Part shown: piece by piece, positions 10,308 to 63,996 of the stretch | Layout: each line of letters opens with the position of its first letter | How positions within the stretch are numbered: position 1 is the first letter of the stretch | Assembly (NCBI GenBank): GCA_041576165.1 | Contig: JBFGLM010000020.1 | Span: 1 to 64,000, forward strand | From: Acidimicrobiia bacterium | Lineage (GTDB): Bacteria > Actinomycetota > Acidimicrobiia > Spongiisociales > Spongiisociaceae | Direction of reading: 5' to 3' | DNA length: 64,000 bases | Position numbers and translations under genes: made by a program | Notes under the pieces: model-generated | Seen by the model: only the letters and a program-made list of their open reading frames with translations | Database searches by the model: none | Told to the model about the DNA's origin: nothing

Positions 10308-11509
10308 CCCGCCGGCCTGTGGCGCGGCTGCTGGGCGGGGGAGCATGCAGGTCGCGCCACCAAACGCCCCGCCGGCGGGCCCGCCGGCTGACGGCCTTGC
10401 TCGCCGCACTGGCGACGGTCGTGGCGGCGTGCACGTCGGGCTCGTCTACCACGACCACCACCGGGGCCGGCGCTCCCACCACCACCCGGCCGGCGGCGAC
10501 CACGGCGACCACCGCGCAGACAACGACGACCACGCGGCCCGAGGCGACCACAACGGCGCCGGCTCCCGCGTCAACCACCACGACCACGCTCCAACCCATC
10601 CCGGTTGCTGAGCTCGAGCTGGTCGCCTACCGGGTGCCGGCGGGGTCCAGGCCGCACGACGTAGCCCCGGCACTCGACGGCGGCGTCTGGTACACCGCCC
10701 AGGGGTCCGGCGAGTTGGGCTGGCTCGACCCGGCCACCGGCGAGACCCGCCACATCCCGCTCGGGTCCGGGTCACGACCGCACGGCGTCATTATCGACGA
10801 CCTCGGCGCGGCGTGGGTGACCGACGGCGGGCTCAACGCCATCGTCCGGGTCGATCCGGACACCGACGAGGTGACCGTCTACCCGCTGCCGGACGATCGA
10901 CCCGACGCCAACCTCAACACCGCCGCCTTCGACGCCGAGGGGCACCTGTGGTTCACGGGCCAGAACGGCATCCACGGCGTCCTGGATCCCGCCACCGGGG
11001 CCATGGAGGTGTTCGATTCGCCGCGGGGACGTGGGCCCTACGGCATCGCCGCCACCCCGCTCGGCACCATCTACTACGCCTCGCTGGCCGGTAGTTACGT
11101 CGGGTTGGTCGACCCCGACGGTTCGGTGACCGTGCTGGAGCCGCCAACACCGGCCCAGGGCGCCCGGCGCGTGTGGTCGGATTCGGCCAGCGCCCTCTGG
11201 GTGAGCGAGTGGAACTCGGGCCAGCTCAGCCGCTACGAACCTGGGTCGGACCGGTGGAACACCTGGCCGCTGCCTGGTGACGCCGCCCAGGCCTATGCCG
11301 TATACGTGGACGATACCGACATAGTCTGGCTCAGCGACTTCGGCGGCAATGCGATCCATCGCTTCGACCCGGCCACCGAAACCTTCGACACCTTCCCGCT
11401 GCCCTCCAACCCGGGCAACGTCCGCCAGATCCTCGGTCGCCCCGGCGAGGTGTGGGGCGCCGAATCCGCCGCCGATCAGCTCATCGTCATCCGCCGCCGA
11501 CAAGGGTGA
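10304..11509 (+). CDS. Vgb (virginiamycin B lyase)-like beta-propeller lipoprotein with Thr-rich linker; start uncertain
   Basis: Lipobox VVAAC; poly-Thr linker; repeated PHDV/PHGV/PYGI...DGxVW blades. Confidence 0.8.
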   Translation: MTRRPVARLLGGGACRSRHQTPRRRARRLTALLAALATVVAACTSGSSTTTTTGAGAPTTTRPAATTATTAQTTTTTRPEATTTAPAPASTTTTTLQPIPVAELELVAYRVPAGSRPHDVAPALDGGVWYTAQGSGELGWLDPATGETRHIPLGSGSRPHGVIIDDLGAAWVTDGGLNAIVRVDPDTDEVTVYPLPDDRPDANLNTAAFDAEGHLWFTGQNGIHGVLDPATGAMEVFDSPRGRGPYGIAATPLGTIYYASLAGSYVGLVDPDGSVTVLEPPTPAQGARRVWSDSASALWVSEWNSGQLSRYEPGSDRWNTWPLPGDAAQAYAVYVDDTDIVWLSDFGGNAIHRFDPATETFDTFPLPSNPGNVRQILGRPGEVWGAESAADQLIVIRRRQG

Positions 11510-58993: not shown

Positions 58994-60619
58994 TCAGCGG
59001 TGGGCCCATTCGAGGAAATCTACCCTGGCCCAGGTATTGACTACCGCCTCGGGGCGAACACCGGCCTGCTGCATCACCGCAACGGAGTGGGCCACATTGT
59101 CGAGCTCATGCAGCCGGTGGGCGTCGCTGTTGGCTGCGAGCAGCACACCGGAAGCAACCGCGGAGGCGACCAGGTCTGCTGAGAGGTCGAGCCGGTCGCG
59201 GTGTCCGTTGACCTCGAGCGCCGTCCCGCTTGCGGCCGCAGCTTCAAGAACGGCATCTACGTCGAGATCGAATGGGGGGCGAATTCCGATACGGCGCCCC
59301 GTTGGGTGAGCGAGCACGCGAACAGCCGGGTGGGCCAAGGCTCGGACCACCCGTGCCGTCTGTTCCTTCCGGCTGAGGTCGAAGTGCGAGTGGCAACCGG
59401 CAACAACGAAGTCGAGCCACCCCAGCGTCTGATCGTCGAGGTCGGGGTTTCCATTGCGGTCGATGTTGATCTCGGCGCCATGCAGGATGACCAGATCTGA
59501 ATATCGAGAACGGAGCTCGTTGATCTCTGCGCGCTGCGTGCGCAACCCCGCCGCGTCCAGCGCTCCAAAGCGGAGTCCCACCGGGTGGTCGGTGATCACC
59601 AGATAGCCATACCCCCGCGCCTGCGCTTGGTTCGCTGCGTCCTCGAGACGCATGTGGCCGTCTGGCGACCAGTCGGTGTGAACGTGGAGATCTCCTCGCA
59701 GGTTCGAGGCCGTCACCAGGTTGGTGGCGTCGATCAGGCGGCCCGTCCTGGCAGGAGGAGGAATCCACGCTACGCCGGCACCGGCGTAGACGTCTTCTTC
59801 CGTTGAGTGATCGGTGTGTTCGCGGAACAGCAGGCGTACGTGGTCGGTGGGTCCGGTCGCTGCGACGAGCGCTGAGCCCGCGCGAGCGGGTGGGCTCAAG
59901 AGCACGGTCGCAGCGGCCCCGCTGTGTAGTCGCAGTGCGACCCGATCGGCGGCAGCCTCGGACCCGGACGCAAGCGCCGTCCGTGACAGAAAGTCGATTG
60001 CTGGCTCAATCCGGTCAGTGACCATTAGCAGATCTAGCGCCTCCACCCATTCGGTCACCCGCCGGACTTGGCCGGCAACCTGCACGGCGCCGTCAGCGTA
60101 TTGATCGAGGTGGGCGGCCAGGCGACCGGCGATCACCGCCGCATCATGCGCCGGCAGTGCCTCTGGCGAGGGCGGCATGGTCAAGACCCGTTCCCACATC
60201 GCCGCCGTGGCCGGGCCGACACCGTTGAGTGTTTCGGCCGCGCCGGCGTCGATGGCGAGCAGCAGGTCATTGACGGTGTCGATACCCAAATCGACCTTCA
60301 TTGCCCGGAGTCGATCGGCTCGCATTCGCGGGAGGCGAAGCATCGTTGATGCATCGCGCGGATAGCGGCTCAGCATGTCCTCTAGTTCCGGCACGCGGCC
60401 GGTCTCACGAAACTCACGGATGACCCGCGCAATGCCGCTCCCGATCCCGTTGACCCTTGTTAGTTCTTCATCGGAACCCTTCAGATCTTCAGGCAGGTTG
60501 TCCAGTGCCCATACCGCTCGTTCGTAGGCTCTCGCCCGGAACGACCGTCGGGTGTCACTCCTCAGAAGTTCGGACAGCTTCCACAGCGCCGCGCCGAGCT
60601 CTCTTCGCTTTGATGTCAC
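58994..60619 (-). CDS. polX: PolX-PHP protein (DNA polymerase X / 3'-5' exonuclease)
   Basis: FRARAYERA; GIGSG HhH; DLHVHTDWS.DG; TDH; AHPTGR; NSDAH. Confidence 0.88.
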   Translation of the reverse strand: MTSKRRELGAALWKLSELLRSDTRRSFRARAYERAVWALDNLPEDLKGSDEELTRVNGIGSGIARVIREFRETGRVPELEDMLSRYPRDASTMLRLPRMRADRLRAMKVDLGIDTVNDLLLAIDAGAAETLNGVGPATAAMWERVLTMPPSPEALPAHDAAVIAGRLAAHLDQYADGAVQVAGQVRRVTEWVEALDLLMVTDRIEPAIDFLSRTALASGSEAAADRVALRLHSGAAATVLLSPPARAGSALVAATGPTDHVRLLFREHTDHSTEEDVYAGAGVAWIPPPARTGRLIDATNLVTASNLRGDLHVHTDWSPDGHMRLEDAANQAQARGYGYLVITDHPVGLRFGALDAAGLRTQRAEINELRSRYSDLVILHGAEINIDRNGNPDLDDQTLGWLDFVVAGCHSHFDLSRKEQTARVVRALAHPAVRVLAHPTGRRIGIRPPFDLDVDAVLEAAAASGTALEVNGHRDRLDLSADLVASAVASGVLLAANSDAHRLHELDNVAHSVAVMQQAGVRPEAVVNTWARVDFLEWAHR

Positions 60620-60664
60620 CCGGGGAGTATGCCCGGCCCGCGGGCGACCCGGGCCGGGCGCAGG

Positions 60665-61366
60665 TCAAACCGGACGACCTTCGGCGTCGATCACGTACGT
60701 GTTGCCGGTCGAATTCGCCAGCTCCTGGAGGAGGCGCAGCTTGTATAGCTCTGGATTGTCTCGCATCAGCGATGCGGCGTTTGCCAGATTGCGCAGCGCC
60801 GCCGTTTCCCCTCGAGCGCGTTCGAGTGCGGCCTGGCCGGCCAGCCGGGCCTCCACGATTTGCGCCAGCAATCTGCGCTGTTCGCCCGGCACTACCAGGT
60901 CGCGCACAGCCAGGCGCGATACATCGACGCCCAGTTGGGCTGCAGCATCCTGCGCCGCCGCCAAGAGTGGATCGTCCAGCTCGGCCCGGTTGGCGATGAG
61001 ATCCTCCAGCGCAGCTGCACCGACCGCCGCCCGCAGCGCCAATTGCACCTCGACGTACAACTGAGATCGCCAGTCGCCCGCACGCAGCGCTGCGACCGGG
61101 TCGGTGACGTTGGTGACCACTGCGACCGTGGCCCGGACGGTGACCCCGTCGGATGTCAGGATTTCCTGGCTTGGCACGATCAGCGTCTGTGGGACTGCGG
61201 CCATGCGCGAGACCCGATCTCTGCGCCGCGAAAGGCGATACCGGCCGGGAGGAAGCACGCGCGTCACCTTGCCGTTGCGCAGCAGCACGACATGCTCGAG
61301 CTCGGTTACCACGATCCGACGTGGCGGTTTGGTCACTTGTTCAGGCGTATACATTGTCCAGGCCAT
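60665..61366 (-). CDS. Slipin / SPFH (band 7) family protein
   Basis: QEILTSDGVTVR; LERARGETAALRNLANAA..M..NP.L..LR. Confidence 0.88.
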   Translation of the reverse strand: MAWTMYTPEQVTKPPRRIVVTELEHVVLLRNGKVTRVLPPGRYRLSRRRDRVSRMAAVPQTLIVPSQEILTSDGVTVRATVAVVTNVTDPVAALRAGDWRSQLYVEVQLALRAAVGAAALEDLIANRAELDDPLLAAAQDAAAQLGVDVSRLAVRDLVVPGEQRRLLAQIVEARLAGQAALERARGETAALRNLANAASLMRDNPELYKLRLLQELANSTGNTYVIDAEGRPV

Positions 61367-61384
61367 CGTTGTCCTCGTGCGGCC

Positions 61385-61635
61385 GGGGTCGGTCGGCACC
61401 GCCGTACGGCGGGAGCCCGAAGCTCGCAGAGCCGTGCGGCGATGTGCGCCGAAGCGCGTCCGACCTTCCCAAGCCGGTAAATGGGGAGTTGAACCCCGGT
61501 TCGTTAACCGTTGCCGGCAGGCCAACGGGGAAACGGGCGAGGCTACGCCCGCCCGGCCTCAGACTCTGCCGGCGGGGAACAGCCTACGGCGACCCGTGCG
61601 CTGCTCGCACTGCTTTTAGGCCACCGCTGGGTCGT
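61385..61635 (-). ncRNA. Candidate structured RNA with a tRNA-like T-loop module upstream of slipin
   Basis: GGGG-TTCAACT-CCCC T-arm, two TTCG hairpins and several nested helices on the minus strand. Confidence 0.6.
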
Positions 61636-61790
61636 TGGAAGGACTTCCCGCCGGATGTCAGAATCGGCACGGTCTCCCTGTGGTCGTAGCCCAAGGGACA
61701 GGCTATGACGTCGTCGAGATCCGGTCGGTGCTGGTCGCGCAGCCCGCAGACGGACGGGGCACGCCAGGCGGTATCAGGATCCGCGGCAGG

Positions 61791-62348
61791 TCACCCGCTA
61801 CCGGGATCTATCTTCACGCCTGAGAAGCTGACATCGACAGCTTCCGCGTAGCGCCGGCCGTTCTTCTTGTCGTGACGATGGAAGGTGGGCGGGTCAACGT
61901 GAACGTCGATCTGATACGAAGCGGCTTCGGGCACCGTCACGTTGGCGCCGTAGTGGTACAGCCACGGATGCCACAGCATGGGGAGCCGTCCCTCGAATGC
62001 GACGGCGCCGGTCGATTCGTCGGTCACCTTGACCGTCACCTCGAGCCCGGGGATGAACCGGTGGTCGGCCGCGTCACGAACCGAGATCTCGATGTGGGCG
62101 TTGTATTCGTCAGGCTCGCGCCAGACGAGGCTGCCGTCGACCATCTCGTGCATACCCTCGGCGCCTTCGATGGCATAGGCCACAATTACGTCACCGACGT
62201 GCTCATCGCCACCCGCGTCAGCGACCGTGTTGGCCATGTGGTGGAGAGCCGTTACGTATGCGTCACCCTGGGCCTGAGCCATGCGATGCTGATGAGGGGC
62301 GGCCTCGTCCGACGCCTTGGTCGGCGGGACACCGGTCGTCTGAGTCAT
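61791..62348 (-). CDS. P19/Tp34-family iron/copper-binding protein
   Basis: AIEGAEGM; AHIE; RFIP.L.V; HYGANV; PPTFHRHD; GGAGG RBS. Confidence 0.8.
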   Translation of the reverse strand: MTQTTGVPPTKASDEAAPHQHRMAQAQGDAYVTALHHMANTVADAGGDEHVGDVIVAYAIEGAEGMHEMVDGSLVWREPDEYNAHIEISVRDAADHRFIPGLEVTVKVTDESTGAVAFEGRLPMLWHPWLYHYGANVTVPEAASYQIDVHVDPPTFHRHDKKNGRRYAEAVDVSFSGVKIDPGSG

Positions 62349-62502
62349 GATGTGGCCTCCGCTGCTTCCTGCGATGTGCACCATCAGTACCCGGCTACCG
62401 GGCTGAGGAAACACGACGCACCGATGACGCGGCTGGCGCCGGTGGGTTGCCCCCGGGCCAGCCGCATGGGACCGGCCTGCATCTGACGCGCTGCCCTGGC
62501 TG

Positions 62503-63996
62503 CTATTCGCCGACCACCTCCACCGTACGTGCGCCGGGTTCGCCACCGAGGGCGATGCGGCGCAGGGCAACGTTGTTGTCGGAGCGTATCTCCTCGAGCC
62601 GGCCGTCTTGGTTGGTCGCCACCTCCAGGAGGTACTCGCCATTCGGGACGTCCGTGATGTCGATCCACTGGCCGGGAACGCTCTGGTAGTAGGAGTCGCC
62701 CCAGCCGACTTGGAGGATCTCCCTTATCCACATGGCTCCGAAGAAACCGCATCTCGTCTCGAGGGCAGCATCCGACGGGCGATAGTCGGCGTGGGGAATG
62801 GTCAGGTCGATGGGGTCGGTGGGCATCAGGCAGAAGGCCTCCTTGCCGCTGACTGCGACCGGGTTGCCGGCGTCGTCGATGATGCGGTATTGCGCGAAGT
62901 CCTTGAAGTGCCAGTGCCGGTGACCTGGCACCGGGTCATATTCGAGTTCCCCGACGAGTTCGCGGGACACGATCACGCCGTCCTGGTAGAGGTATTGATA
63001 GGCGTCCATCACTGGTTCGCCGAGACGCCGAAACCCTTCGACGACCAGCGGACCATCGCCACCGTTCCACACGTTGGCGCCGAAAATGATGGCGTCGACC
63101 CCCTCAGAGCCCGGGTCGTCCGGGCCGGCCATCATGATGTTGAACGGTGGGAGGGCGATCAGGTCTGGCAGACCGCTGGCGTCGGCGGCAACTTCTGGAG
63201 CCTGGGGGGTCTGCGCCGCCAGGCCGTGGATGTCGCCGACTGGCGGCCCCGTGGCCAGATCTCCGAGTCCCCCGTCGGTCTCGTCGCCGGTGGCGACCGT
63301 TACTGCCATTGAGGCGCGGGCCCGGTTGGCAGGGATTCCGAACAATCTGCGGTATCTGGGTTTGATCTCGATGTCGAGACGGTAGGTGCCGTCCGGCACT
63401 GCACGATCTACGAAAATCGAATCGGGTGCCCGCCCGGTCCAGCCGGCGTCGATGCCCCACACCATGCCGGTGGTGAGTTCACTGACGACGCAGGAATCGG
63501 CAAACTCGGACGTGGACGGACCGGTGTCATCCAGTCGTGCCCGATCCCACGTGAGCGGACAGAACGGGATGTCGGCAGAATGGACGACGCCGCCGGCTTC
63601 TGTCGACATTGTGACGTTGAAAAAGGCGTCGAATCCCTGGCTGAGATCGGGCACCGTCCAACCGGGTAGGCGGCGCGTGCGGGCTATCTCACCTGCGTCG
63701 TCACGCACAATTTGCCGAGCGGTGATCTCGCCGTCGCGCTGGCGGTTCACGTGTACTTCGAACTCGCCGCCGGTGGCTGCTACGAAGCTGGGCAGTCCTT
63801 CGAGGACGAAGGAGCCTTCTGGGGACCGGACCTGGTCGATCTCGGACTCAGTGACGATCAGCCGCAGCGAAGGGAAGCTCGGGCGGGGCGAAGGTTGCGC
63901 GTCGGACTCGGCTTCCGCTCCTATCGACGCGCCGCTGATCAGGAGCGCGGTGATGATGGCCAGGCTGGCCAGACGGGTCACACGGATGAACCGCAT
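62503..63996 (-). CDS. Secreted lysyl oxidase family protein
   Basis: Signal peptide; PDL; HRHWH Cu site; KEAFCL; GWGDSY; QWIDITDVPNG.Y. Confidence 0.88.
   Translation of the reverse strand: MRFIRVTRLASLAIITALLISGASIGAEAESDAQPSPRPSFPSLRLIVTESEIDQVRSPEGSFVLEGLPSFVAATGGEFEVHVNRQRDGEITARQIVRDDAGEIARTRRLPGWTVPDLSQGFDAFFNVTMSTEAGGVVHSADIPFCPLTWDRARLDDTGPSTSEFADSCVVSELTTGMVWGIDAGWTGRAPDSIFVDRAVPDGTYRLDIEIKPRYRRLFGIPANRARASMAVTVATGDETDGGLGDLATGPPVGDIHGLAAQTPQAPEVAADASGLPDLIALPPFNIMMAGPDDPGSEGVDAIIFGANVWNGGDGPLVVEGFRRLGEPVMDAYQYLYQDGVIVSRELVGELEYDPVPGHRHWHFKDFAQYRIIDDAGNPVAVSGKEAFCLMPTDPIDLTIPHADYRPSDAALETRCGFFGAMWIREILQVGWGDSYYQSVPGQWIDITDVPNGEYLLEVATNQDGRLEEIRSDNNVALRRIALGGEPGARTVEVVGE

Follow-up and report, generated by a model that had tools for sequence, protein, structure and literature searches.

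Why would a bacterial slipin gene be preceded by a structured RNA that carries the T arm of a tRNA? SPFH/slipin proteins occur throughout life, and in bacteria their functions are mostly unknown. A conserved RNA dedicated to one subfamily gives us a handle on when and why these proteins are made.

The question arises in a window (the whole stretch of DNA that was analysed, 64,000 nucleotides) in which a structured RNA of ~195 nt lies directly upstream of a gene of the slipin (membrane-scaffold) family, on the minus strand at 61573-61381. A sequence-only reading of the window had described a tRNA-like module there, with acceptor-like, D-like and T arms, and had brought in YrlA (a bacterial Y RNA) and RNA repair. 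We propose that the RNA is a structured, cis-acting 5' leader of the slipin mRNA and that its fold controls translation or decay. We hold this leader reading to be probable, with considerable room for doubt.

The slipin locus and the parts of the leader

The share of the window considered here consists of four open reading frames on the same strand:

60665..61366, minus strand: slipin / SPFH (Band_7) gene, 233 aa (Pfam PF01145, E = 2.3e-20)
61791-62348, minus strand: Fe2+-transport-like gene, upstream of slipin
62503-63996, minus strand: gene for a lysyl-oxidase-domain protein, further upstream, beyond the Fe2+-transport-like gene
58994-60619, minus strand: PolX-like gene (HHH_8 + PHP), downstream of slipin

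The spacer between slipin and the end of the Fe2+-transport-like gene (61791) is 424 nt long, and the leader spacer occurs once in the 5.1-Mb genome to which the window belongs. The only tRNA that ARAGORN finds in the whole window is distant (10942-11031). The slipin protein lacks an N-terminal membrane helix, as judged by eye from the alignment of the subfamily only. Atlas clusters for the gene are labelled 'slipin family protein', PADLOC assigns the window gene to no family and NCBIfam gives only sub-threshold HflK matches. A tblastn search of plasmids with the slipin protein returned 0 matches. None of the PolX-like, Fe2+-transport-like and lysyl-oxidase-domain genes is kept beside slipin and its RNA in other genomes.

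Read from its 5' end, the RNA and its immediate surroundings consist of the following parts:

61581..61586, minus strand: -10-like hexamer TAGGCT, starting 13 nt ahead of the first base of P1
61566..61573, minus strand: P1, 5' strand, GCCGGCAG, the probable 5' end of the RNA; 8/8 pairs with two-sided changes, 93% of cells paired
61556..61565, minus strand: J5', the 5' side of the conserved P1-P2 internal loop, from the alignment
61534..61555, minus strand: P2 hairpin; 9/9 pairs with two-sided changes, 85.7% of cells paired
61521..61533, minus strand: J3', the 3' side of the internal loop; consensus approximately GGUUCYNCGUNNGG, read from the alignment
61513..61520, minus strand: P1, 3' strand, CUGCCGGC; covariation in the 5'-domain alignment
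61498..61509, minus strand: variable linker V, here the hairpin GGUU-AACG-AACC
61483..61497, minus strand: T arm GGGG-UUCAACU-CCCC with a tRNA-type T loop; present in 10/10 protein-found genomes, stem covaries
61459..61475, minus strand: P5, 5' strand, outer stem of the 3' domain, including the TTACCGGC region; 14/15 pairs with two-sided changes, 92.9% paired
61446..61457, minus strand: P6 tetraloop hairpin GCGC-UUCG-GCGC; 98.4% of cells paired
61431..61443, minus strand: P7, 5' strand; 10/12 pairs with two-sided changes, 88% of cells paired
61412..61427, minus strand: P8 hairpin with a conserved asymmetric internal loop (GYGRGC-loop-GCYCCCGCC); 99.3% paired, 4/6 pairs with two-sided changes
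61398..61410, minus strand: P7, 3' strand; overlaps the local hairpin CCGCC-GUAC-GGCGG
61381..61397, minus strand: P5, 3' strand, end of the conserved structure (match of model R1 at 61501-61379, 102.5 bits)
61372..61376, minus strand: Shine-Dalgarno-like GAGGA, 4 nt past the base of P5 and 5 nt ahead of the ATG (61366)

The T arm meets the tRNA consensus, GTTCRANYC with a stem of 4-5 bp, and the base pairs of its stem exchange GC, AU, UA and CG across relatives. The linker before it varies from ~10 to 35 nt among relatives, which have another hairpin or none at this place. Between the T stem and P5 there are ~2 to 15 nt, depending on the relative, hence P5 cannot serve as a 7-bp acceptor in fixed stacking on the T arm. 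Since linkers of varying length stand on both sides, the T arm is a hairpin on two flexible leashes and not the core of a cloverleaf.

Further downstream, P6 loops in relatives are GNRA or UNCG, and purine-rich sites are found at the same place as GAGGA. In the group of L006 the middle of P7 is poor and the local hairpin fits better; elsewhere P7 covaries. The two most divergent leaders, L039 and L040, share the P2 loop ACGGGGUACCGC, and many other leaders have (C/A)AUC there; P2 subtypes may exist. Some candidate elements were rejected by eye: a pseudoknot of J3' with the linker that follows the T arm (present in the L006 group alone), a small hairpin covering the Shine-Dalgarno site (present in L003 alone) and a terminator-like hairpin in L018 (too weak).

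Relatives of the leader and their linkage to slipin

A search of 401 genomes of the window's own order with the slipin protein found orthologues (E <= 1e-40) in four, its own genome included. All four (4/4) carry the conserved leader directly upstream of slipin. In one of them, G004, the leader is ~70% identical over window positions 61571-61408 and the slipin protein 67% identical. The gene upstream of it is membrane-transporter-like (as read from its open reading frame), unlike the iron-transport-like gene of the window. The blocks of conserved nucleotides do not keep the same reading frame between the window and G004, and therefore they are not coding.

We next searched 401 genomes of the phylum with a slipin profile built from 16 proteins. 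The profile places slipin in 7/401, again with the window's genome among them, and all six other carriers have a tRNA-type T loop 100-180 nt ahead of the gene. Hence the RNA stands upstream of slipin-subfamily genes in 10/10 genomes located by protein homology.

Metagenome contigs were scanned with an exact pattern: the T loop, 50-70 nt and then GCYYCGRGCYCCCGCC. The scan gave 18 loci, two of which are tRNA genes and 16 the leader; the T loop and the CCCGCC block of these 16 were imposed by the pattern. A slipin-subfamily open reading frame starts 6-70 nt past the motif in 16/16 of the non-tRNA loci. The same pattern had 0 matches in viral contigs.

The proteins form one family. Twelve distinct metagenome proteins align with that of the window and those of L003, L006 and L015, at 33-66% identity to the window protein, with or without hydrophobic N-terminal segments (by eye). 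For the slipin reading frame at L031:133-855, the closest relative of the window gene, the alignment is lost past about residue 155, a pattern that a frameshift or an assembly error could explain.

At every one of 26 loci (10 genomes and 16 contigs) the RNA lies directly upstream of slipin, in sense orientation on the same strand, and among the loci found we met it only together with this slipin subfamily. Presence and absence go together as well. Three genomes have the leader at the end of a tRNA array, and in their family slipin and the RNA both occur in the same 3/21 genomes. In the window's own family, a BLAST search with the leader in 29 genomes found G004 only, the four other matches being short and due to chance, and G004 alone among the 28 other genomes has slipin or the RNA. 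When model R1 (below) was run on another 150 genomes from the order, it matched twice, each time on a true tRNA gene.

The flanking genes, by contrast, are unrelated between loci: a SpoU methylase, a Na+/H+ exchanger, SufBD, malate dehydrogenase, NUDIX, an OLD-like TOPRIM and the PolX-like gene. Shared presence with differing neighbours means that slipin and the RNA form a self-contained module of two parts with a patchy distribution. The OLD-like TOPRIM reading frame lies downstream of slipin at L015:461-1126 on the minus strand, in genome G369; the context may be a defence island in G369 only.

Conservation of the fold

A single sequence decides nothing here: the fold of the spacer is modestly unusual (z = -2.2 and -2.4), and it is so on both strands alike. 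We therefore turned to the relatives. RNAalifold on 15 distinct leaders gives the T arm, followed by the long stem P5 that bears the P6 tetraloop hairpin and the irregular P7-P8 arm. Model R1 of this 3' domain was built from the same 15 pattern-found sequences. It matches 6/6 protein-found leaders outside its seed, with 66.1, 64.4 and 57.4 bits for L035, L036 and L037 and with 39.4, 35.3 and 32.4 bits for L038, L039 and L040. The last three scores overlap with those of false matches of R1 on tRNA genes (36.9 and 30.5 bits). Hence L038-L040 are counted as members partly for their context: they stand directly upstream of slipin and are not tRNAs by ARAGORN.

The structure of the 5' domain was written by hand on the window sequence alone, because MAFFT alignments put the 5' helices (P1) out of register, and was then refined with its matches into model R3. 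Unrestricted duplex folding for P1 over-extended the helices and was discarded. Outside its seed, the 5' boundary of R3 agrees within 3 nt with the parse made by eye in L035, L016, L017, L018, L020, L023 and L021. In most relatives R2 and R3 start at the hand-parsed position or at most 3 nt from it. R3 is weak on L036, L025 and L038 (E = 0.04-0.15, and model E-values are rough), matches L039 partially and misses L033 and L040.

Pairing far exceeds that of shuffled alignments in both domains; the counted alignments were fitted to the models, and many of their rows are close relatives. In the 3' domain (23 sequences) 93.1% of cells are paired against 67.3% in shuffles, 32/40 pairs have changed on both sides, and the covariation score is 0.69 against 0.21 in shuffles and at most 0.15 with slid partners. 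In the 5' domain (15 sequences) 91.2% of cells are paired against 60.2%, and 19/21 pairs show two-sided changes, among them 8/8 of P1 and 9/9 of P2. The score is 0.757 against 0.204 in shuffles and at most 0.18 with slid partners. For either domain 0/500 shuffles reach the observed pairing. When the partners are slid by 1-3 columns, pairing drops to 42-50%.

The strand can also be told. G-U and U-G cells outnumber A-C and C-A cells by 80 to 13 in the 3' domain and by 16 to 5 in the 5' domain, as expected if the strand in the sense of slipin is the RNA.

What does this leave of the module that had been read from the sequence? Every element listed is there on the minus strand, within a feature that is larger than had been described: the T arm (61497-61483), the hairpin GGTT-AACG-AACC (61509-61498), CCGCC-GTAC-GGCGG and, as segments that are present, the two halves of the supposed acceptor, GCCGGCAA (61518-61511) and TTACCGGC (61480-61473). 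Several elements are also borne out by their conservation. The T arm is paired beyond chance (100% in the 5'-domain alignment, 96.7% in the 3'-domain alignment), the nested long helix (61573-61513) is P1 plus P2 with 17/17 pairs changed on both sides, and the TTCG hairpins (61457-61446 and ~61427-61412) are P6 and P8, conserved and covarying.

The remaining pairings do not hold. The enclosing acceptor GCCGGCAA/TTACCGGC pairs no better than shuffles do: z = -1.1 (p = 0.13) for the window itself, and on average z = -0.03 when 21 leaders are taken together. Its pairing is specific to the window, and its 3' partner pairs downstream instead, as the base of the covarying P5. The hairpin taken for a D-like arm falls in the variable linker, where sequence and length vary, and is absent in some relatives. 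The local hairpin CCGCC-GTAC-GGCGG excludes P7, which covariation backs. A switch in which GCCGGC pairs in two ways found no support in a duplex test against shuffles over the 21 leaders. Of the tRNA-like module with three arms, the T arm stands, and the acceptor-like and D-like arms fall away. The more general proposal, an unannotated conserved structured RNA tied to slipin, is confirmed by covariation upstream of orthologous slipin genes, and Rfam 15 has no match at gathering score in the whole window or at the 18 loci.

Source and possible role of the RNA

Where does the RNA begin? A TANNNT hexamer starts 10-14 nt ahead of P1 in 15/21 leaders (background 0.0012 per nt), most commonly at -12. 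The window has TAGGCT (61586-61581) at -13, and the first base of P1 lies ~7 nt past this -10 box. As the box stands at a fixed distance, transcription should start at the base of P1 or next to it. A hairpin on the plus strand, GTGCG-CTGCT-CGCAC followed by TGCTTTT (hairpin at 61596-61610), overlies the -35 region of this minus-strand promoter. It is terminator-like for a plus-strand transcript, and no convergent plus-strand gene is evident.

Six leaders are without a -10 box. In three of them (L035, L036 and L037, from genomes of a single family) the start of the RNA lies 1 nt past a tRNA-Thr(CGU) gene. Same-strand tRNA arrays end at these leaders, at L035:2448-3415 (12 genes), L036:326-1242 (11) and L037:22-417 (at least 5). 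In all three genomes slipin seems to form the final cistron of an operon of tRNA genes, and expression of the RNA appears to come from the array upstream. Since the leader lies 1 nt past the last tRNA, its 5' end must there come from tRNA processing. P1 is the 5'-terminal helix in either mode of starting. Single tRNA genes occur near two other loci: tRNA-Ile(GAU) at L015:2494-2569, on the opposite strand ~100 nt upstream of the leader, and tRNA-Arg(ACG) at L018:11-87, on the same strand just downstream of slipin.

At the other end the RNA runs close to the start codon. Measured from where the model match ends (2 nt past P5), the distance is mostly 3-33 nt and most commonly 13-22 nt by an approximate hand count, with longer gaps in L020 (~47 nt) and in L035-L038 (up to ~80 nt), also approximate. 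The Shine-Dalgarno site lies within P5 in L033 alone, 2-20 nt outside it in most leaders and 50-80 nt away in L035-L038. No expression platform can be made out from this, which counts against the leader reading. In the window, a search of the RNA strand for a terminator-like site between the RNA and slipin found none.

The leader probably controls or processes the slipin message. How could it do so? The conserved single-stranded nucleotides seem, from the alignment, to concentrate in J3', in the T loop and in the internal loop between P7 and P8 (GGCYNUGYG...CCCGCC). We suggest that the T loop docks on the P1-P2 internal loop, at the near-invariant GG of J3', as the T loop of a tRNA docks on its D loop. 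The simplest role for a T loop held by flexible linkers is that of a docking element, and the docking would show no covariation because the candidate partners are invariant. It would produce a compact, elbow-like fold. This fold, either free or bound by a putative ligand or protein, would set the translation of slipin, the stability of its mRNA or both. Control would act through the P5 stem, which abuts the ribosome-binding site.

The RNA might instead be a stable tRNA mimic that is cut from the slipin transcript by RNase P, RNase Z or a similar enzyme and acts in trans or with slipin, as Y RNAs do with Ro. The canonical tRNA T arm, the blunt 5'-terminal helix P1 and the strict co-occurrence with slipin speak for this, as does a start 1 nt past the last tRNA in three genomes (arrays of at least 5 to 12 genes). 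There is a precedent in Mycobacterium smegmatis, where RNase P cuts YrlA within the acceptor-like stem-loop after the T arm, according to Chen et al. (2014, PMC4201824). Similarly, PMC13086221 places an SPFH gene in the rtc RNA-repair locus of Pseudomonas aeruginosa. Against a tRNA mimic, the linker of ~2 to 15 nt between T stem and P5 leaves no fixed acceptor stack of 7 bp, and acceptor pairing on the 5' side is not conserved. ARAGORN finds no tRNA or tmRNA at the leader in the window or at 20 loci, and the Rfam tRNA model is silent there too. In the window there is neither a terminator nor a second promoter between the RNA and slipin. We regard such a trans-acting RNA as unlikely, if well worth keeping in mind.

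A bolder idea, and one we think improbable, is that the leader is a new kind of mimic of the tRNA elbow and works physically with either slipin itself or the tRNA machinery. In one version, tRNA-processing enzymes would release the RNA, which would then be bound within the SPFH oligomer or next to it, in the manner of a vault RNA. Vault RNAs go together with the major vault protein, which has an SPFH-like shoulder domain. In the other version, the RNA would sense tRNA-related stress and couple it to the production of a membrane scaffold. We know of no direct RNA partner of an SPFH protein, and the leader would be the first if this idea were true.

Two other explanations we find very hard to credit. 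The element could be what remains of a tRNA gene that has decayed, or an attachment site, derived from a tRNA, that a mobile element left beside slipin. This would account for the T arm, for the tRNA genes close by in five loci and for the patchy distribution (4/401 and 7/401 genomes). However, conservation and covariation extend over ~190 nt, well past the 3' half of a tRNA, and the T stem itself covaries. Moreover, the module is kept while slipin proteins diverge to 33% identity, and there is no repeat copy in the genome. Alternatively, conservation could act at the DNA level, on operator or promoter sites, or be an artefact of high G+C content. The promoter at the 5' edge of the element and the modest single-sequence z, alike on both strands, would fit. 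Yet compensatory changes keep the pairing, which falls to 42-50% once partners are slid by 1-3 columns, and G-U is tolerated far more often than A-C.

The least credible of the explanations, to which we give next to no weight, counts the leader among the YrlA RNAs (bacterial Y RNAs). The tRNA-type T arm and the variable region ahead of it are common to both, but an Rfam scan of 61200-61900 at E up to 10 gave two unrelated chance matches only, and PF05731 (TROVE/Ro) is not found in the window's genome (96.5% complete). On its RNA strand the leader has no copy of the motif GNCGAAN0-1G (the sole match nearby lies on the other strand), its modules follow another order and the RNA is fused to an mRNA. 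The same results give no support to the link to Ro and RNA repair that had been drawn from the sequence: no Ro gene is found in the genome, its RtcB gene lies on another contig, the Ro-binding motif is missing, and Pfam finds neither Ro nor RtcB among 39 selected flanking open reading frames or among the window's four at 58994-63996. That the module stands alone weakens the reported association of SPFH genes with rtc RNA repair.

We return to the leader reading. The RNA is deeply conserved: it persisted while slipin proteins drifted apart to 33% identity. It is also an unusual leader, with a canonical T arm, with either its own promoter or the end of a tRNA array as its source and with no counterpart in Rfam. 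These features make it a promising place to look for a new mechanism of regulation or processing. Our search of the literature found no paper that ties slipin or SPFH genes to a structured RNA or describes a slipin leader RNA. The main texts of two motif surveys (PMC11109978 and PMC8632094), whose supplements could list further motifs, mention none of SPFH, Band 7, slipin, tRNA-like, T-loop and HflC.

How does the leader compare with known RNAs that carry parts of a tRNA? With YrlA (PMC4201824) it shares a T-loop hairpin, a variable region before it, a stem-loop after it and the attachment to one protein family. The differences are larger. YrlA is a free small RNA encoded beside rsr, and a criterion for it is a location within ~4 kb of an orthologue of Ro60 (TROVE), which the slipin leader lacks. 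The slipin leader is the 5' leader of an mRNA and has no conserved acceptor or D arm. YrlA runs from the T arm through the acceptor-like stem-loop to the D arm; the leader runs from P1/P2 through a variable linker to the T arm, the 3' domain and the mRNA. What could be called D-like in the leader therefore precedes the T arm, unlike in YrlA, where the D arm follows the acceptor stem-loop.

tRNA-like elements are also known within longer transcripts, such as the tRNA-like domain of tmRNA and the mascRNA of MALAT1. Like these, the leader has a T arm inside a larger RNA, and in three genomes it is co-transcribed with tRNAs. Unlike these, it has neither an acceptor stem nor a CCA context, and the linkers of its T arm vary.

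A different kind of relative is found among orphan riboswitch candidates and protein-binding leaders that are tied to one gene family, such as the yjdF and raiA motifs and the leaders of ribosomal-protein genes. The slipin leader differs from orphan riboswitch candidates in three respects: no expression platform can be recognised, a canonical tRNA T arm is present and a tRNA array can feed it. It resembles them in being a 5' UTR in sense orientation, with several covarying stems, conserved nucleotides in internal loops and junctions and a single associated gene family. We regard the leader RNA as a new class within a known kind, the structured mRNA leader.
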